Below are positions 7,968 to 24,596 of a stretch of DNA of 64,000 nucleotides, piece by piece (within the stretch, counting starts at the first letter, position 1; every line of letters begins with the position of its first letter). Origin of the DNA: Callorhinchus milii (Eukaryota). The notes under the pieces are model-generated. The model ran no database searches, was not told the DNA's origin, and was given only the letters and a program-made list of their open reading frames with translations. The stretch covers positions 25,854,001 to 25,918,000 of the forward strand of contig NW_024704747.1 in assembly GCF_018977255.1 (NCBI RefSeq). Direction: 5' to 3'. The translations under genes and the position numbers were made by a program.

Positions 7968-7988
7968 TAGGCAGTTCATGTTGTTGGG
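7968..7988 (-). promoter_or_regulatory. miR-196 target site in the Hoxd8 3' UTR
   Basis: Plus strand TAGGCAGTTCATGTTGTTGGG versus mature miR-196a UAGGUAGUUUCAUGUUGUUGGG. It lies between the stop (8423) and the AATAAA (7724-7729). Confidence 0.88.
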
Positions 7989-13900: not shown

Positions 13901-16474
13901 TTCCGAAATAAATAAGAAATAAGACAGAAATTTCCGGAAATCCACAACAGGTTGATCTGCACCTGAAAGTCAAAAATAGGTTAACATTTTAAATATTACC
14001 TTTCATCAGACCTGAATAGTTCCGTTCATGTTTTATAGTTTGCGTCAATTGCTTCACATCATATGTCGTTTTAATCCATCAATAAAACCAACTATCGCAG
14101 ATTATTATTGAATGATGGTTATATTAATCTACTTTGCATAAAAATGCGTTGTATGAAATTATGAGTAAGTACATATATGTGTATGTATGCATAAATGTGC
14201 TCAGGAAGAGATAACTCTTTGAGTCGATTGCTTGAATTCCAGTGACAAGAGCAGAATTAATTGTCTTCTCTGCTTTAACCAGTGTCTGCAATTTTGTTTG
14301 TCACCAACAGACAATAACATGTGAATTAGCTGGTTTCAAAGAAGCCCGTAATTGCACGGAGAAAACCATAAAGCCATTAAGGTCAGACGTCTAGCCAGTT
14401 GTGGGGGTTTATTGTACCCCGTTCCTTCCTGTTTTAAAGTAGTATTTATGGAATTGTGACAATAGATGGCGTTGCAATTCAACACCTTCTGAACACTTTA
14501 AAGTTTTACTGGAACTTCTTTAGTGAAGATGCAAGAAGTTTTAGTTTTACGACTGCATAGCATTGTCTTCAATCTGAGGTGGCAAACGTGATAGTCATGT
14601 GAAATAACATGCAGTCGCTTGTGTGCTATATGGTCAATTATGTGCAAGGCAACCACCAATCTGTACTCAGTGCTTTATAGCTCCTGTGCAAATACTTTTA
14701 ACCGTGAGTGTATGACTGTGGTGAGTCGACTAAACACATTTGCAGCTGGGAATCATTGCAGTGTGTCATTTAGTCGGATATTGGTAAATAGCGTGAATAG
14801 TAAAATAATAGTCAAAGCTTGAGAGGAAAAAAAACACACCGCCTTATAACACAGTGCCCACATAGGCCTACTTATAAGGAGGATAACTTCAATTGTTTTG
14901 GGGCTGAAGTTAACTCCTTTTGGTGTTTAACCAAAACATTTTATTTAAAATCGTGATTAATAATGTAGTTGCTGGATCGATATTAACTGTGAAACATCAT
15001 CTTACATCTGAAATCCCGTCCATAGGCGTCAATTAACATCCTTGAATCATTATACTATTATAATAATTATAATCAATTAATTTCCATGCTGAAATAAAGT
15101 GTTGATCCGTTAACTGAACGAATTTCCATACATCTCCTGTTGTTATCTGCCTTAGAGTTTCTGTGATCCTTTCACCAACCAAATGCAAAGCAGAAGCTAA
15201 TACCGCCTCTGCGTTTTATCCGTAACATACAGCTTTTGTAACTCTCGCTAAAAGGGTGTTTAATTGAACTCAAACTGCGTTTACTGAATCCTTAAACGAC
15301 CGTTACAGTAGCACAAAAACGGAATTGTTTATGAACTTTTTATTGTTGGTATCACAACGAGCAAAAGTGACGTACACAATATATATATGGGCTGGTACAT
15401 GAGTGGCATCTTCTGGTTTTAATTATAGTATTTTGTGTTTTACAGCATAGAATAAGTTTTACAGTTACGGCTGTGGTGGTTGTTAAATACCATGGAGCAG
15501 TTGGTGAGTAAGTCCAAAACTACTGTGACGTTAGCTTTTTTTTTGCATCTAAAAATACATTAATTACATCATTTTGGACTTATATAATAGTCCAAGTAAA
15601 TCGCCTCTTCAGAACATTATTCGAATCAGCGAAAAGAGCACGACGTTAAACTATGTTTTATCCACTTCACAATTACTAAATATACTTGTTTTACACTGCC
15701 CCAAACTCACGAAAAAGAAAGATGCATCAAAACAGTTTCGAACATTCCAGAATTAAATCTGTTTCCATGTACCTGTGCCACCCGGTCGAAATGTCAGTGT
15801 TTTTATGAAGACTTATTGTATTCGACAAATATATGTTCTCGTCAAAATTGTATGAAGCTCTTTAATTTTGCTTGGAGTATGATAAAATAAATATTGTATT
15901 GGGGCTGACTCTCTTTGTCACCACAGTGGTATCTGTCATTCTGTTGGCTAATAACTGCCCTGATATTAAGCCCTTGGCAGTTGTGTTGGATTCGACACCG
16001 AATAAAATGAATAAAAATGGAATAAAACGACAAAAAATGGGGTACAAAAATGGTAACATTTCCATGTGTTTATGGTATCTAAAGAATACACTACAGGCAG
16101 AAACATTAGTCAACGACAATACAAGTTGCACGACTAAACAAAATGTCACACATGGGCAAGGTTTTACCTCTATATATAAAACAAGTACACTTTATTAACT
16201 TCGTCAAAGTTTTAACGTGATAAGACCGACTTGCTGACATCAATTTAGATTCGGTTTAATGTTGCCCAACAGCAGCAAATCAGGGAATAGTCTCTAGAAG
16301 GCAGTTACTTAAATACAGAATTGCTCTGGAACAGTACAACACTGGGAAACATATAGACCGTGCTTTGTTTCTGACTAGGCCAACCTCCACTAGATAGATA
16401 AACACATTCGCACGGTCTGCTTTGTAAGATTTTTTTTCGGAAAAACCACCACGACACACGCGCACGATCAATCC

Positions 16475-16716
16475 CTAAGGCGTTTTGTTATTTCGCTCCT
16501 TGCTCATCTTTTTCATTTTCATCCTTCTGTTTTGAAACCAAATCTTTACCTGGCGCTCGGTAAGATTCAAGATTCTAGCAACTTCATAACGCCGGTCCCT
16601 GGTAAGGTACATGTTAAATAAAAACTCCTTTTCCAATTCGAGCGTCTGGTATTTGGTGTAGGGACAGCGTTTCTTCCTGGTGGAGCGAGCGTGGATCCAA
16701 TTTGCTGAAGGGTTAT
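16475..16716 (-). CDS. HOXD9: Hox-D9 exon 2 (homeodomain)
   Basis: [73 protein letters not shown]. Acceptor ttccag|at, intron 579 bp. Confidence 0.95.
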
Positions 16717-17295
16717 CTGGAAAGGAATTGAAAAAAGGCATATTAATTAACTGGATTTCTGTGTGTCCCCCCCCCCCCCTCCCACTGGAAGTCCACCGTT
16801 TGTCAAAAAATTCTCATCTGCCAATAAAATATTCCAAAGCTGCAATATTCCTTTTCAAATCAGCACTCGTCAAATTCACGTCAGCTTCACACAGGAATCA
16901 ACAGAAGCAGTTAGTTAGCAGTGGTTGCATTCGGACCAATTCTGAAGAGAGAGAGATGCCATTGAAAGAGAATAAAAACAAAGACACCGGAGAAGGTTAA
17001 ATGCAGTTACAAGAAGTTTAAGCGGCGAAACATTGCTTTGCTTTCCGCATCGAATGGGGTTTTAAAGATTCACGTAAAGATGCATTGCGACGACGCTTCG
17101 CAATTTGATCAGAACCAACTTTGTGTGTGAAATGTTAGTTCTGTGCAAACAATATCACCGCTTTACAGCTGGCTGTAGCTCCTCAGACTTGGGTAGGCGT
17201 CTAGACATTTTTATAGGTTTGTAAAACCATCAGCTTTGCACACTCGGGGCTCCAGGTTTGGGTTGTAAATCAAGCTGCAATTTTTTTGTACTTAC

Positions 17296-17851
17296 TTGGG
17301 TCAAGTTGCTGTTGTTTCTCCTCCTTGGGCTCACTGTTGCTCGTAATCTCGGAGCTGGTGCAGCAGAGCTCCTTGGAGAGTTTGTCCCTGCTCTCTGAAT
17401 ACGACCCGCACGTAAATTCCGGTAGGCTCAGGGCTTGCAGCTCGTACGAAGAACATTCAGTCCTCTTGGTTGACAAAGTTTCCGGCTTGATCCCGTAGTG
17501 CCGCCCGTTGGAGTGGAATCCGGAGAAGGGGACGGGAGCCGAGATCGGATCCAACCAGGAGCGCACGTATCTGGAGTCCGAGGTTGCAAGGTGCGATTGA
17601 TGCATATAAGGATGATAGATGCCCGCAACTGCGGCGGAGGATTGCGGATGGACAGGAGCCCAAGAGGAGGAAAAGACCGCCGATTTGGGGGCAAAGCTGC
17701 AGGAAGAGAAATCCGAACTGTCCGCTACACCTGATGGCCTTGAAGCCGGGTTGTGCGTCCCTTGAGCGTATCTGGTGGCGTACAGCTCCTCGGCTTCCTG
17801 TCCTATCAGGGAGTCCACATAATAGCTGCCTATAGTGCCACCGGTCGACAT
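17296..17851 (-). CDS. HOXD9: Hox-D9 exon 1 (protein about 265 aa)
   Basis: PG9 N-terminus MSTGGTIGSYYVDSLIG, plus SCSFAPK, RYVRSW and HYGIKPE motifs. Donor CCAA|GTAAGT. In-frame upstream ATGs at 17872 and 17926 make the start slightly uncertain. Confidence 0.92.
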
Positions 17852-17949
17852 TTTAGGTACTCTCGCATTCATAGAAAAGGTTACACTGGAAAGTGTATCT
17901 CTGATACCTTCCCTCAGAACAATCATAGTATTTTGCCGACCGCAGCGGC

Positions 17950-18075
17950 GGCTATTGGTTGTGGGCTTCACGTGATTGTATTTACCAATACACCGAGTAA
18001 ATCAATCCGCTCATCAATGTAACCAAAAATGGTGCGAGGCCCGCGTTATATGAATTAGGAAACAGATTACCAATG
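17950..18075 (-). promoter_or_regulatory. Hoxd9 proximal promoter motifs
   Basis: ATTGG/CCAAT boxes, E-box TCACGTGA, and TGATTTAC (PBX-HOX type) on minus near 18000. Confidence 0.55.
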
Positions 18076-21000
18076 GGCAAAACTCATCTCAATAAAGTCG
18101 GTTGGTTTAGGGGGGGGAGGAGGAGGGTAGAGGGGGAGGGGAGGAGGGGGTGCATGGAGCAGGGAGAGGGGTGGGGGGAGGGGGGTGGGGGTTGGGGGGA
18201 GGGAATAAAAAAATAATCTGCAGCAGCCAGATTTGCAACCTCTCCAAAGTGCAGTTAAAAATAAGGTTGTGGAGAAGCACGGGGGGACTATTTTTCTCCC
18301 GTAGACCAATTAATGCCTGTCACTCGTTTCATAATCAGCAGTGCGTAGTCCATGATCTATGTCAAGAGCGAATATCTGTTAGTTTAGCGTAATAAAGCAT
18401 CAAGAAAACACCTTCGAGGTATGTTAGTGTTTCTGTACTGTGTGCCACTGCTTAGAAAAAAAATAGAAATGTAAAGGAGAGTAAAACAATGTGATATAAA
18501 ATGATCGATGGGGTAAGCGTTTTTTTATACCTTGAATGCAGGTCTGTACCGATTTTATTTCACCCCTTTTAAATGGTCGCCTAATATTATAATTTGTTTC
18601 AAATATAACCACATTTCGGAGCAAAGTGTTCCTCACCGCTTTATAGCCTGTACTCAGAAGCCACCATAAATGTTTTTATGTCTATCAATAAAAATTTTAT
18701 GAGGTGCATTTGATTCTACATTAATGTGTCTTTAATAAAACAGGGACTCTTTTAGCGTAGTAAAGCAGGTCTAACCAACTAAAGGTTCCCACAAAGCTAC
18801 AAGTACTCTCTCCATGTGAAAACAAATTTGTTTTTTTTTCGTACCAAGGCTTTCGCGAGACTTGAGTGTACCATTGTGTGTACAAGAGAGGAGACCTCAG
18901 TCGCTGCTCAGAATGTAAATGCTCCATCAGCTCGAGTGGAACATTTCAGTCCTATAGCTTCCGTAAACAATGGGGGGAATTGCAGAGAAGTCTTTGAATG
19001 CAAGTCGTGCAGACTGTGAATGTTTTCCACGCTCACCCACCCCCCCCCCCCCCCCACCCCCCCCCCCCCCAACCCCCCCACCCCTCACATGAAAGGCATC
19101 AAAAAAGCTGCAGAGACTGAGTGTTCCTTCAGATAACACGTTCAGTTAGTTCAGTCTTATCCTCTGTCCAGGACAAAGATCAGAGAGGCAAACTTCGTTC
19201 GTTGTGAAGGGGAGAAGTTAGGTTACGTTGTCTGAACTGTATTCATCAATTCAGTCTTTTATTGGATTGATTTACCCTTCCCCTCTCCCCCTCCCACACC
19301 CCCAAAAAAATAAATAAATAAACTGATTTTCTTTCCTTTTGAATGGTCAAGTCCGACACAATCATCTTGGCATTCACCCTGACGAGGTATTGAGGATAAC
19401 TGGATCGAGTACATGGCCGTTCCATAGCAGAAACTTAATTTAAACTAAAATTGCTAAAATTTGTCCCACTCTCTGTCCCCTCTCTCTACTACCCTCGTGG
19501 TAGAGGGATTATTACCTCTGATTTACTGTTTATAAAATGAAAAGCTAGTTGTTTGATTCAAGGGGAAATGGCAGAATCTAAGATCAACTGAGCCGGATCA
19601 AAGACCCGTCAAAAAGCATTCAGATTAATTTCCCTCTATTATGTAACGTTATATACCATTGCCTCACATAGCAGCATTGTGTGCATTAAAGGCAATTTAT
19701 TGAACAATATTTAACCATTAAACACCCAAACATGTTCGTATGTTACCAACTTACTTTCACTTTCCGCTATATTTAAGATCACAAATGCTTTAACTGATCG
19801 TAGGTGGATTAGACAACGAACAAGTTCACGAACGCTTTACATTGAGCATGAGTTTGATCGGCCATGTTTCTTAAAGCGTCAGGTTTTGTTCATTTGTGTT
19901 CGGTGTTATTTCACAGAAAGATTTTTTTTTTGGTGGTTAAGTGCGTTATTGAACGATACATCCTGGATGCGGGTTCTATACACAGTGAAACGCGCGGATT
20001 GAGGAATACATGTTTTGTCTTTGAAAGGTTTTTTTTAAAAATATCAAATTTCATTCTATTTAAAAGACCACGTTCTTAAAGTTTACAGTATCAACACATG
20101 GAACATCCCCCGATTATGCTGGTCACATTTGCTGCCATTTTGCAGCGCATTAATATACAAAGCTAAACCTTTCTTTTCCAAGAAGACACAATGCAGACTA
20201 TAACAGCAATGCTAATGTTGATATGAAACCTTTAACCAACTGAAAAGAAATACTGATACTGTGAAAGTCGATAATTGCAAATCAATGGCTGTACATTTTC
20301 ACTGATCTATAAAGTTACCGACCAGAGGAATTTGACCTCCATACTCCATTGGAAGGTTTCTACTATGTAATCAACACTGGGGAAAACATCAAAAGTTTTG
20401 TATATGTCGAATCACACAAGCAGAATAACGTAATTAAAAATGTATTCAATGAATATATTTAAACTAAAACGGCCCAGTTTTACTAACTGTTAGCAAAATA
20501 AATCCAACACATTTCCATATGTGGTTAAAGATTTTTTTTAGAAGTTGAACCCAGACTGATCAATTTACAGTTCAAAAAAGAATTTTGGTAAAGCCCTTGA
20601 AGCCTAATTGTATGTTTCTGATTTTTTGTTAAGACTCAACCGAGCAAAATCACGTTTTATTCAATATGAAATAGAATTTACTTGGAATTTATTTTGGAAC
20701 AAATGTTGGGCTAAACATGTCCCGCAAAGCTTCGGTCCACACAGTTTAGTACAGTCTAAAACTAAGATTGTCTATAATTCACTCTTCGACTCAATTTGCT
20801 GAGTTTTATTTAGCTTGAATCACCATGTTTTTTTTTCTGAATACGCAAGGATATTATATACTTTCATTATCTAATATATATAATACTATCTTTCTCAAAA
20901 CTACCAATATAAACACGACAGACTTGGAATACAACTTCCGTGCTAATTTATATGACATAATCCCTTATTCAACTGATGACATTTGTAATTTTCTGGTGCT

Positions 21001-21493
21001 AGAATTCCGTTGAACGATATTAATAACTAAGGTTAAAGCATCCGGAAATGTCATAATATGGATCATCTTATATTTGGATGTTTAATGATTTTGTTTAAAT
21101 ATATCTGAGCTACGCTTTATTTTCTTTACTTCGATTCTGCTTCGGAATTCCAAGACAACGAATTGGGTTTTCTTGGGATTTTTTTTCAATAATATGCGTT
21201 TATAAATATATATGTTAAACACGGTGAATTCGAATATTCACTGGATTGATTATCTTCCACATTAAAAGGACTTACTGAGCTGTACCGTTATCTGGTGGCC
21301 TCCTTCTATACACACTGCCCGTGCAATGGTTCAATTTGTTTTTTTGTGTGTCACTAGATTCCCATTGAAAAATCTCGCATTAATTAATGCTCTTTTATTT
21401 TTTAAAAATCACAAAACTATGCAAAACCGGTCACCTTGTGAGCTAAAAATATTCGTGCAGAATGACCTAATTGCGTTACTAAAATGATTCCTT

Positions 21494-21499
21494 TTTATT
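21494..21499 (-). terminator. Candidate distal poly(A) signal of Hoxd10 (proximal candidate 22558-22563)
   Basis: AATAAA on the minus strand. Confidence 0.45.
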
Positions 21500-21570
21500 A
21501 GTCTGGCTGACATTTACAAGGGACAGCCGGACACTCCTTTAAAGAAACGGTCACTGAACACATTAGGTTT

Positions 21571-21596
21571 GACCCTGAATAGAACCGGAATTTGTG
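21571..21596 (-). promoter_or_regulatory. Extended miR-10b complementary site in the putative long Hoxd10 3' UTR
   Basis: Plus strand gACCCTGaaTAGAACCgGAATTTGTG versus miR-10b UACCCUGUAGAACCGAAUUUGUG. Confidence 0.65.
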
Positions 21597-22929
21597 AAAC
21601 ACATTGGATATGATGGTAAATATGCTATTGCATTTGCCTCATACCGGATCATAAGTATGGGGGCAATAGTAATTGCTATTTACGCTGAACACATTAGAAG
21701 ACGACAGTCTTCCGATGTGTCACAGATGTCGAGTACCTTCAAGTACTGAATACTAAAAGTGGTTTGGAGTTGCGGTTAAAACATCAATCCTAAATGCAGA
21801 AATAATCTAAGTACGTTACTTTAAAACTGTTTTAGCCGTGGCAGCGAGCTGGGTTTACTATCCGTGGCTACTTTATAGGGCATAATCACCGTTTTAATTT
21901 TACACATTCGAATCCTTATTTTAGATACCACAGTCATTGTTTTTTTTATACTGTGAAAAAAAAGTAAAAAAAAAAATCCAGAATATTTTATGAATCCTCT
22001 TATCTGCGCTGAGGAGGCGAAGAAGATCGATCCCCAGTGTATCTCCCAAACAAAGCTGAAAAATTATGACCTAGCCGGGTATAATTGAGCCAAAAGGTTA
22101 TGCTCTTATTTTATACAGCCAGGACCATTCCGTGGCAATAAATAATTTAATAAATAGCTGTGGGAATTTACAGTTTGGATTCCCTGTTCCAAGCGAGGAT
22201 GGCAGCATCGTTTCAGGCTAAATGTCTGCAGGTTTGGTTTAATTAAAAAAAATCAACTGCTTTTGATGAAACTTCGCTGTCTCTTTAATGCCTTGTCACT
22301 GGGTACGCCCAAAGGCGCGAGGTATTGTTCAGAAGTGTTGGAGAAGCAAATCGAATTAATCTTTCAGCCCAAACTGTTACATTTCATCTATTCGTCATTC
22401 ATGAATTGTCTTCAAAAGCTTGAATTTATCTACTGTTAAATCATTTTGACTGCATTGCGCACAGATAATTTAGGAAATAAAACAACGCGCTTATGGCTAT
22501 TAGCTCGCATTTCTCAAGTTGTAAAACGGCTTGAAGAAATTGAAATATAATTTAGGATTTATTATATATTCGTGCAACAGACACATGCACATAAATACAC
22601 ATGAAATTTAGCATCGCTATTCCATCACATACTCCAGAAATGTACCTTCACAAACCTAATGATCTGACCGCTATAATTGTATAAGGGATTTTTTTAAAAG
22701 GTGTAGCTCTGTATTTAACAATTAAAAAGATGCGCTTCTGTTAATTGTTCACATTAGCAGTGGGACGTCTATCTGATCTGTAATTACCAGATAAATGTTC
22801 TTTTTGACGAATCATAATTTTGCTAAATGAGAATTTCTAGCATTGTGTACAGTCAACTCTTTCCCCCCCCAAAAAAAAAAATTGCACGAATAACTTAAAA
22901 CCTACTGACTAAATTAAAGTAAATAATTA

Positions 22930-22936
22930 ACCCTGT
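22930..22936 (-). promoter_or_regulatory. miR-10 seed site (7mer-m8, ACAGGGT) in the Hoxd10 3' UTR
   Basis: About 220 nt after the stop codon. HOXD10 is an established miR-10b target in mammals. Confidence 0.6.
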
Positions 22937-23152: not shown

Positions 23153-23430
23153 TCACGAAAAGGTCAGGTTGGCGGTCAGTTCTCGGATTCGGTTTTCTCT
23201 GCTCATTTTCTTCAGTTTCATTCTCCGGTTTTGAAACCAGATCTTCACTTGTCGGTCGGTCAGATTGACGCTCTTACTTATCTCTAGACGGCGCTCACGA
23301 GTCAGATACATATTGAATAAAAATTCCTTCTCCAATTCCAGTGTTTGGTATTTTGTGTAAGGACATCTCTTCTTTCTTCCAGTCTTTGCCGTTAGCCAAT
23401 TGCCCGTCGCAGCCTTAGTCGTGGTATCCT
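23153..23430 (-). CDS. HOXD10: Hox-D10 exon 2 (homeodomain)
   Basis: [17 protein letters not shown]...[43 protein letters not shown], the D10-type C-terminus. Acceptor gatag|ag, intron 1166 bp. Confidence 0.96.
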
Positions 23431-24596
23431 CTATCAATAAGAAATCAAATGTAAGCAATCATTTGTGTGACACACGGTAAACCTAGTTTCAATTGCTTTA
23501 ATCGCAAGATAGCCAACTAAAGTTGAAAGCAGATTGCATGTTATTTAATGTATTGAAATTCTTGGCAAATACAGTATTCGCAACAAATAGAAATACAAGA
23601 TGGCTGAATAGCAAGATGCAAGCATTTGATAAATTGAAGAAGAACTGAACTTGAAGGTGTGAGATATTGACTATTATATTGTTTCACTGTTTTCTAAATA
23701 TCGGGAATCATTTCCTTGTGAATTATGTCAAATGTAGTGTAAGAGTAGAATATGAATAAACTTAAAAAGTACTGATTCTCAATTAATCGCTTGTAATCAT
23801 GTTTTATTTGTAAACGGAATGTGAAGTTTGGGGTTGAAATAAAAACAGTGTTTATGCCTCAGGTCACTTCAGAGCTTCGAATCGAAATGTATCGAAAGCA
23901 AAGCAAAGTGCGTTCAGAATAATTCTAGAGGTAAATCTTAAGAGCATTAAACTTATGATCGCTGTCTTTTATGACACAGCTTAATTGCAATATATGATTA
24001 TACGTATTACATGTAATACTTCATCGTCTTAGAAAGGACATTTTATCACTTTTTATATGTGTTCAGATATGAAACATAAATTATTTCTGTGAAAACGACA
24101 ATAATTACAGCGCCCGGGCCTCTCCCACTCTGTTATTTCCGAATCAGCAAAAATACTAGGCATTTACTATCCAAAATACAAGCAACACCTATGGTACCGA
24201 TAATACTGAGTCTCCGCCACTTTCTTAAATACATAATTTATATGTGTAATATATAGTACATGCATGGTACTGAAATGTCTATACACAGTAATACGTTTCG
24301 TATTATTTGGCACGCTCTAACGCTGATGAAACTATCAATGTTTAGCTGACATCTGTCAATGGTTTACTGGCATTTACTATGTCATTAACGATGTCATGGC
24401 ATTACTGAGCAAATTTCCGAACAACTGGGAGTTCTTATAATGAAAGGAAGCTGTGCTACTTTGCGCAATGCTGTATGAACTTTCTTACCCGTAAGTATTC
24501 GAATTAATACGTTTAAATGTAAAACTTTGCAACCAGGTTCAGATGGAGTAATAAAGTAATTATTTAAATGCGGAATTGGATATTATGAATACTCAC

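Follow-up and report, generated by a model that had tools for sequence, protein, structure and literature searches.

The DNA that we analyzed is a 64-kb stretch of the Callorhinchus milii genome (here, the window) that carries seven Hox genes, all on the minus strand. We take the cluster to be HoxD of the cartilaginous-fish type, a label that we assume from the fit of gene order and complement, including the neighboring homeoboxes. The paralogue name Hoxd10 is likewise assumed from gene order and complement (Table 1). The genome contains three Hox-linked miR-10 precursors, namely, an a-type in HoxB, a b-type in HoxC, and a b-type in HoxD, the last of which lies ~10 kb to the left of the window. 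We took the mature miR-10b sequence from the genome's own precursors; it is the same as the one printed in the available part of PMC2148072. miR-196 is present between Hox10 and Hox9 in clusters A, B, and C. We did not find miR-196 in the HoxD cluster or a remnant of it in the D Hox10-Hox9 interval, and an Rfam scan of the window returned zero RNA families. As a separate observation, the HoxD miR-10b precursor aligns weakly with the HoxA miR-196 precursor plus its 5' flank (G000:C2:48087189-48087254, L015; score, 42), a place that is the position of the amphioxus miR-10 copy. This alignment was the best of 16 comparisons and was equaled by 3 of 500 dinucleotide shuffles; the likeness is probably due to chance.

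Table 1. Features of the Hoxd10 3' region and of the Hoxd8 comparison site, in window positions
Feature	Position	Strand	Remarks
Hoxd10 homeobox exon, within open frame	23153-23458	-	Stop codon at 23153-23155
Canonical 7mer-m8 miR-10 seed site, proximal 3' UTR	22930-22936	-	217 nt past the stop; seed only, -11.4 kcal/mol, without 3' pairing
Proximal AATAAA	22558-22563	-	CA 16 to 17 nt downstream
Extended miR-10b complementary site	21572-21596	- (Hox sense)	Pairs nt 2 to 23, 22/23 nt, -29.1 kcal/mol
AATAAA named distal in the first-pass annotation	21494-21499	-	X5 contig passes through
AATAAA, candidate distal signal	19696-19701	-	X5 cover ends at 19681; CA 15 to 16 nt downstream
Putative long 3' UTR extension of Hoxd10, or read-through RNA, bearing the extended site	19681-22540	-	Deduced from X5 contigs
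Extended miR-196 site past Hoxd8	7968-7988	-	~440 nt past the stop; 0.72 of perfect

The first-pass annotation of this DNA had described 22 of the 23 miR-10b bases in order on the plus strand, with a 2-nt and a 1-nt insertion, about 1.6 kb from the Hoxd10 stop. We found the sequence as described and measured the distance as 1.56 kb. On the plus strand, positions 21572-21577 equal miR-10b nt 2 to 7, 21580-21586 equal nt 8 to 14, and 21588-21596 equal nt 15 to 23. The target thus has a 2-nt bulge (21578-21579) between nt 7 and 8 and a 1-nt bulge (21587) after nt 14 or 15. The annotation had also proposed pairing along the whole miRNA with a bulge just after the seed. The bulge and the pairing of nt 2 to 23 are there. 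The bulge falls at nt 7/8, however, and position 21571 places a C opposite nt 1, which is unpaired, so that the seed is only a 6mer (nt 2 to 7) without a direct nt 8 match.

The duplex at the extended site has 0.72 of the energy of a perfect miR-10b duplex. The a-type miRNA pairs there with -25.2 kcal/mol and a mismatch at nt 12, where the site matches the b-type base. Nucleotides 8 to 14, including nt 9 to 11, form contiguous pairs, and keeping nt 8 to 11 open costs 7.2 kcal/mol. The 3' pairing comprises 8 to 9 contiguous base pairs up to the last nucleotide, with -13.2 kcal/mol from nt 11 onward. The seed of the site is rather closed, with an unpaired probability of 0.02 (22nd percentile of the region). 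We also found the canonical seed site in the proximal 3' UTR, which the first-pass annotation had overlooked together with a slicing-type alternative.

A repeated motif surrounds the extended site. An exact 13-mer occurs at 21554-21566 and at 21685-21697, 131 nt apart, and an 8-nt core copy of it lies at 21598-21605. There is also a 25-nt repeat (72%; spacing, 41 nt), and its 8-nt cores lie on either side of the miR-10b site. Shuffles did as well in 3 of 500 and 0 of 300 cases, for a region that was picked post hoc; these repeats might reflect a motif bound by a protein or a local duplication of some age. Window positions 22158-22177 in the Hoxd10 3' region and ~1763-1782 on the 3' side of Hoxd8 share the same 20 nt exactly, in inverted orientation. 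We considered a repeat origin for the miR-10b match unlikely; the 281 bases around it were single copy in a genome search.

We compared the extended site with several nulls. Among all 40-nt tiles on both strands of the window, the site formed the best duplex with miR-10b (-29.1 kcal/mol; runner-up, -23.3 kcal/mol). It was also the best miR-10 site in the four Hox clusters (574 kb; 168 seed-anchored matches), with the three miR-10 genes set aside. A comparison with shuffled controls had been suggested in the first-pass annotation, and the site beat them. In the window, none of 2,000 dinucleotide-shuffled miRNAs attained its alignment score and 4 of 1,500 attained its seed-anchored energy, and on the 574 kb of Hox sense strands its alignment score was attained by 1 of 1,106 (Gumbel P, ~0.0005). 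The 22-base miR-10b match is above chance.

In 991 Mb of genome, the three-block pattern, which was drawn after seeing the site, matched only the three miR-10 genes and the extended site (control, 0). The seed plus a 9-nt 3' match had 31 matches, made up of the three genes, the extended site, and 27 others (control, 8). The rarity lies in the central pairing that comes on top of these blocks, in a Hox 3' region and on its sense strand. By extrapolation, ~1.8 equal-scoring matches are expected genome-wide; it is therefore the location of the match, in the 3' region of a Hox gene, that gives it weight. As further observations, a HoxA match at C2:48069784 reaches -25.1 kcal/mol with miR-10a, and the sense/antisense counts of miR-10 6mer seed matches are 21/6 in HoxD (G000:C6:25794001-25918000) but nearly balanced in HoxA (30/23), HoxB (19/25), and HoxC (24/20), as raw counts uncorrected for composition.

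We then asked what RNA covers the site, using four of 24 runs, compared over positions 16000-21940. We deduced that two of them, X5 and X7, are RNA from a spliced Hoxd9 joint, 17296 to 16716, which in both runs spans a 579-nt GT-AG intron on the minus strand. X5 contigs, which give no strand, ends, or level, cover 19681-20629, 20653-20919, and 20999-21940 (and beyond). X5 depth there was ~7 to 13, versus ~2 to 6 in the Hoxd9 intron and 0 in three bins at 18985-19581. One X5 contig of 1,572 nt, which starts at 20999, carries the extended site and crosses the AATAAA at 21494 unbroken. Judging by its length, this contig, if colinear, would reach ~22570; cleavage at the CA behind the proximal AATAAA would make a 31-mer graph branch there, and the putative link of the contig to the proximal UTR follows from this length. 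X7 was patchy across the interval, including 19473-19667, and its depth was zero in the bins with the extended site, which is not proof of absence.

Both AATAAA hexamers named in the first-pass annotation are present on the minus strand. The proximal one is probably the main poly(A) signal. The other had been taken as the distal end of a long isoform, a role that does not fit the X5 contig that runs through it; the long isoform appears to be ~1.8 kb longer. The end of X5 cover next to the AATAAA at 19696 is a weak hint that this is the likelier distal signal. As a hint from one study, the data suggest that the Hoxd10 3' UTR is mainly short (~0.6 kb), with a minor long form of ~3.5 kb. The earlier claim that the site belongs solely to a long isoform has partial support. 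The site lies beyond the proximal signal and is covered by X5, one of the two RNA runs compared; the proposed distal end is not supported, and strand is not visible in contigs.

Alignments to DNA contigs from two other species include the site. One contig aligns end to end over 21328-21600 with 20 substitutions and 16 gap letters, and a contig of the second species aligns over 20591-21940 with 169 substitutions and 45 gap letters; these are whole-contig totals and not values per site base. The putative extension is alignable to two other species at ~84 to 87% identity, and several stretches closer to Hoxd9 fail to align to the other species' contigs. We found no counterpart of the extended site or its region in the Hox10-Hox9 intervals of clusters A, B, and C. 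The exact site pattern had 0 matches in metagenome contigs. From 425 metagenome homeobox loci, we kept 80; two of these resembled Hox10, neither with an alignable 3' UTR, and the best site score in the 80 was at most 26, versus 35 for the extended site.

The miR-10b match is real and, on all of these data taken together, probably selected, with a function that we predict from sequence. We tentatively prefer, at slightly less than an even chance, the reading that it is a selected high-pairing site by which miR-10b would silence or slowly slice a minor long Hoxd10 transcript. According to this model, transcripts extending beyond the proximal poly(A) signal would gain the extended site in addition to the proximal seed site. 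AGO-miR-10b would dock by the 6mer seed, close the 3' helix, and then pair nt 8 to 14 across the scissile position. It would then cut or destabilize the long RNA; the predicted cut, opposite nt 10/11, separates 21582 from 21583. Wherever miR-10b occurs (it is encoded in HoxC and HoxD), it would hold down long or read-through Hoxd10 RNA.

The feature expected for slicing, near-full pairing that includes nt 9 to 12, is found here over 22 of 23 nt. Slicing is not assured, because insertions at t9 to t15 slow cleavage at least 10-fold, according to the portion of PMC10338343 available to us, and because the seed is not very open; the insertions in the extended site are 2 nt at t7/8 and 1 nt at t14/15 or t15/16. 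In the sections of the respective papers that we used, HOXD10 is repressed by miR-10b in human cells (PMC7792759), and miR-10 is proposed to clear noisy Hox transcripts (PMC3394115). miR-10a-null mice are described in the accessible part of PMC3812087 as having no major trunk defects, which tempers the effect to be expected.

Few miRNA sites in animals have such extended pairing; for the Hox clusters, the textbook example is miR-196 acting on Hox8 genes. miR-196 slices an extended site in the Hoxb8 3' UTR (Yekta et al. 2004, as cited in the part of PMC3394115 that we used). In a control scan with the genome's own miR-196, we found extended sites behind Hoxb8 (0.83 of perfect; C23:1155460), Hoxd8 (0.72), and Hoxc8 (0.66; C27:1707640). 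The miR-10b site is similar to this system in that a Hox-embedded miRNA pairs nearly in full, including nt 10/11, with a Hox 3' region, and its ratio of 0.72 is that of the Hoxd8 site. It differs in the miRNA and in its flaws, which are target bulges instead of wobbles or mismatches. It also differs in lying in a distal, minor UTR extension and in having no paralogous copies. The logic of the preferred reading would be like that of miR-196 on Hoxb8 and Hoxd8, except that the target lies posterior (5') to the miRNA gene, against the usual bias stated in the text of PMC3394115 available to us.

In humans, miR-10b regulates HOXD10 by way of a proximal-UTR seed site. The present pair of miRNA and target is the same as the one for which repression in human cancer cells is given in the accessible text of PMC7792759, and this genome also has a plain seed site in its proximal UTR. 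In contrast to the human seed site, the extended site is 1.3 kb farther out and is paired almost throughout. Zebrafish HoxB1a and HoxB3a have miR-10 seed sites, including a 6mer that was functional in a sensor assay (PMC2148072, in the sections available). Unlike the extended site, those are seed sites in anterior genes, and HoxD10 is unmentioned in the same sections.

An alternative that we consider unlikely, at perhaps one chance in four, is that the match is a coincidence within a stretch conserved for other reasons, such as UTR constraint or a Hoxd10-Hoxd9 DNA enhancer, maybe one that includes the repeated 13-mer. The genome-wide expectation of ~1.8 such scores and the shuffles that equaled the energy are consistent with coincidence, as are the lack of a paralogous site in A, B, and C, the lack of a report of the site in the literature found, and the appearance of the long isoform in one RNA run (X5) of those compared. 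Against this, the probability on Hox sense strands is ~0.0005 to 0.001, for a miRNA that is encoded by these very clusters. The match also lies on the sense strand, in the transcribed 3' region of a known miR-10b target, and its bounds are exactly nt 2 and nt 23.

Somewhat less probable still is the reading proposed in the first-pass annotation, in which the site would act as a trigger for target-directed miRNA degradation (TDMD). A long Hoxd10 RNA would hold AGO-miR-10b by the seed and the 3' end with the centre open and would recruit ZSWIM8. This reading predicts that miR-10b is lowered, more than miR-10a, in posterior tissue. We regard it as equally doubtful that the long Hoxd10 3' UTR is a Hox-encoded trigger tuned to miR-10b, such that a posterior Hox mRNA, through the choice of its distal poly(A) site, would destroy the anterior cluster's microRNA, and Hox mRNA and Hox microRNA would limit one another.

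In the part of PMC10899785 available to us, validated triggers have seed pairing, mostly an 8mer, and a 3' run of no fewer than 6 contiguous pairs, whose energy ranges from -9.6 to -17.1 kcal/mol (median, -13.5 kcal/mol). They typically have a loop of 3 to 11 nt that unpairs nt 9 and 10, with exceptions. The 8 to 9 contiguous 3' pairs of the extended site, at -13.2 kcal/mol, lie inside the validated range, which was obtained with a different folding program. The site also passes the TDMDfinder thresholds given in the accessible portion of PMC8887481 (at least 7 consecutive 3' pairs, a bulge of 2 to 8 nt, and a ratio of at least 0.7), with a ratio of 0.96 by a ViennaRNA analogue. Like the pairs Cyrano-miR-7, Nrep/libra-miR-29b, and HSUR1-miR-27 described in the same part of PMC10899785, it combines a seed with long, strong 3' pairing to the end of the miRNA in a noncoding region. 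HSUR1 acts with a 6mer seed, and centrally paired sites trigger at times, according to that text.

Of the trigger features, the extended site thus has seed pairing, as a 6mer, and contiguous 3' pairs. In contrast to those triggers, it has no central loop of 3 to 11 nt at nt 9 and 10; there is a 2-nt bulge at nt 7/8, and nt 8 to 14 are paired. For the first-pass proposal, the strength of the 3' pairing is supporting evidence; the bulge and the 6mer seed are unlike those of a typical trigger. In the sections available to us, ZSWIM8 shows only weak binding to targets that are paired throughout, and the length of the loop makes a difference (PMC13083262), and larger TDMDfinder effects accompanied bulges of >4 nt (PMC8887481). 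The bare seed plus 9-nt 3' match is also common, as its 27 other places in the genome show. In the three files examined of the mouse Zswim8-knockout supplements (PMC10620050), miR-10a/b are listed solely in an expression-level sheet, and the main text of PMC10499020, PMC13041716, and PMC13369745 names neither miR-10 nor Hox. The mouse data may say little about this site, which mammals could lack. HOXD10 was absent from the TDMDfinder supplement (PMC8887481) and from all 11 supplementary files searched, of 14, of PMC8653786. Elsewhere in the genome, we observed a site ~1.4 kb before the HoxC3 coding start (G000:C27:1647010-1647039, L047; minus strand; -25.4 kcal/mol) that pairs perfectly with miR-10 nt 14 to 23, has a 5-nt target loop, and pairs nt 2 to 10 with a G:U at nt 6. 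By its predicted pairing, the HoxC3 site is more trigger-shaped than the Hoxd10 site but has a wobble seed.

The site is not itself a miR-10 gene, as the first-pass annotation had correctly held. It matches RF00104 (mir-10) neither at the gathering score nor at E 10 and folds into no hairpin (z, 0.21), and whole-precursor alignment to the interval is insignificant, with 42 of 100 and 10 of 100 shuffles as good. The resemblance to miR-10 is confined to nt 2 to 23, and the flanks are unlike those of all three precursors. That the stretch is what is left of an ancestral miR-10 gene once located between Hox9 and Hox10, or of a miR-10 gene copied in inverted orientation, without present function, is very improbable on these same results and because the site fits the 5p-arm complement (score, 31 to 35) much better than any 3p arm (17 to 19). 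In its favor, amphioxus carries a miR-10 copy between Hox9 and Hox10 (PMC3394115, in the part available), and the minus strand just 5' of the site is weakly like the miR-10a 5p arm, with 6.8% of random tiles as good. The score of this stretch against the complete a-type precursor, 32, exceeds the 99th percentile for 140-nt tiles, partly because the site matches the precursor loop. Even a relic could since have been co-opted as a target site.

Regulation of human HOXD10 by miR-10b and of zebrafish HoxB1a and HoxB3a by miR-10 is known. We found no report of the predicted extended site on the distal Hoxd10 UTR in the literature, with the elephant shark Hox cluster paper, its conserved-element tables, and bioRxiv supplements outside the scope of the search. 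If silencing or slow slicing of a long Hoxd10 form by miR-10b is true, the pair would be a second case of extended pairing in the Hox clusters and would tie poly(A) choice to miRNA control within a cluster. Its combination of trigger-strength 3' pairing with a paired centre would also be a natural test of the boundary between slicing and miRNA degradation. If the site were instead a trigger, a Hox mRNA would have a noncoding role against a Hox microRNA.
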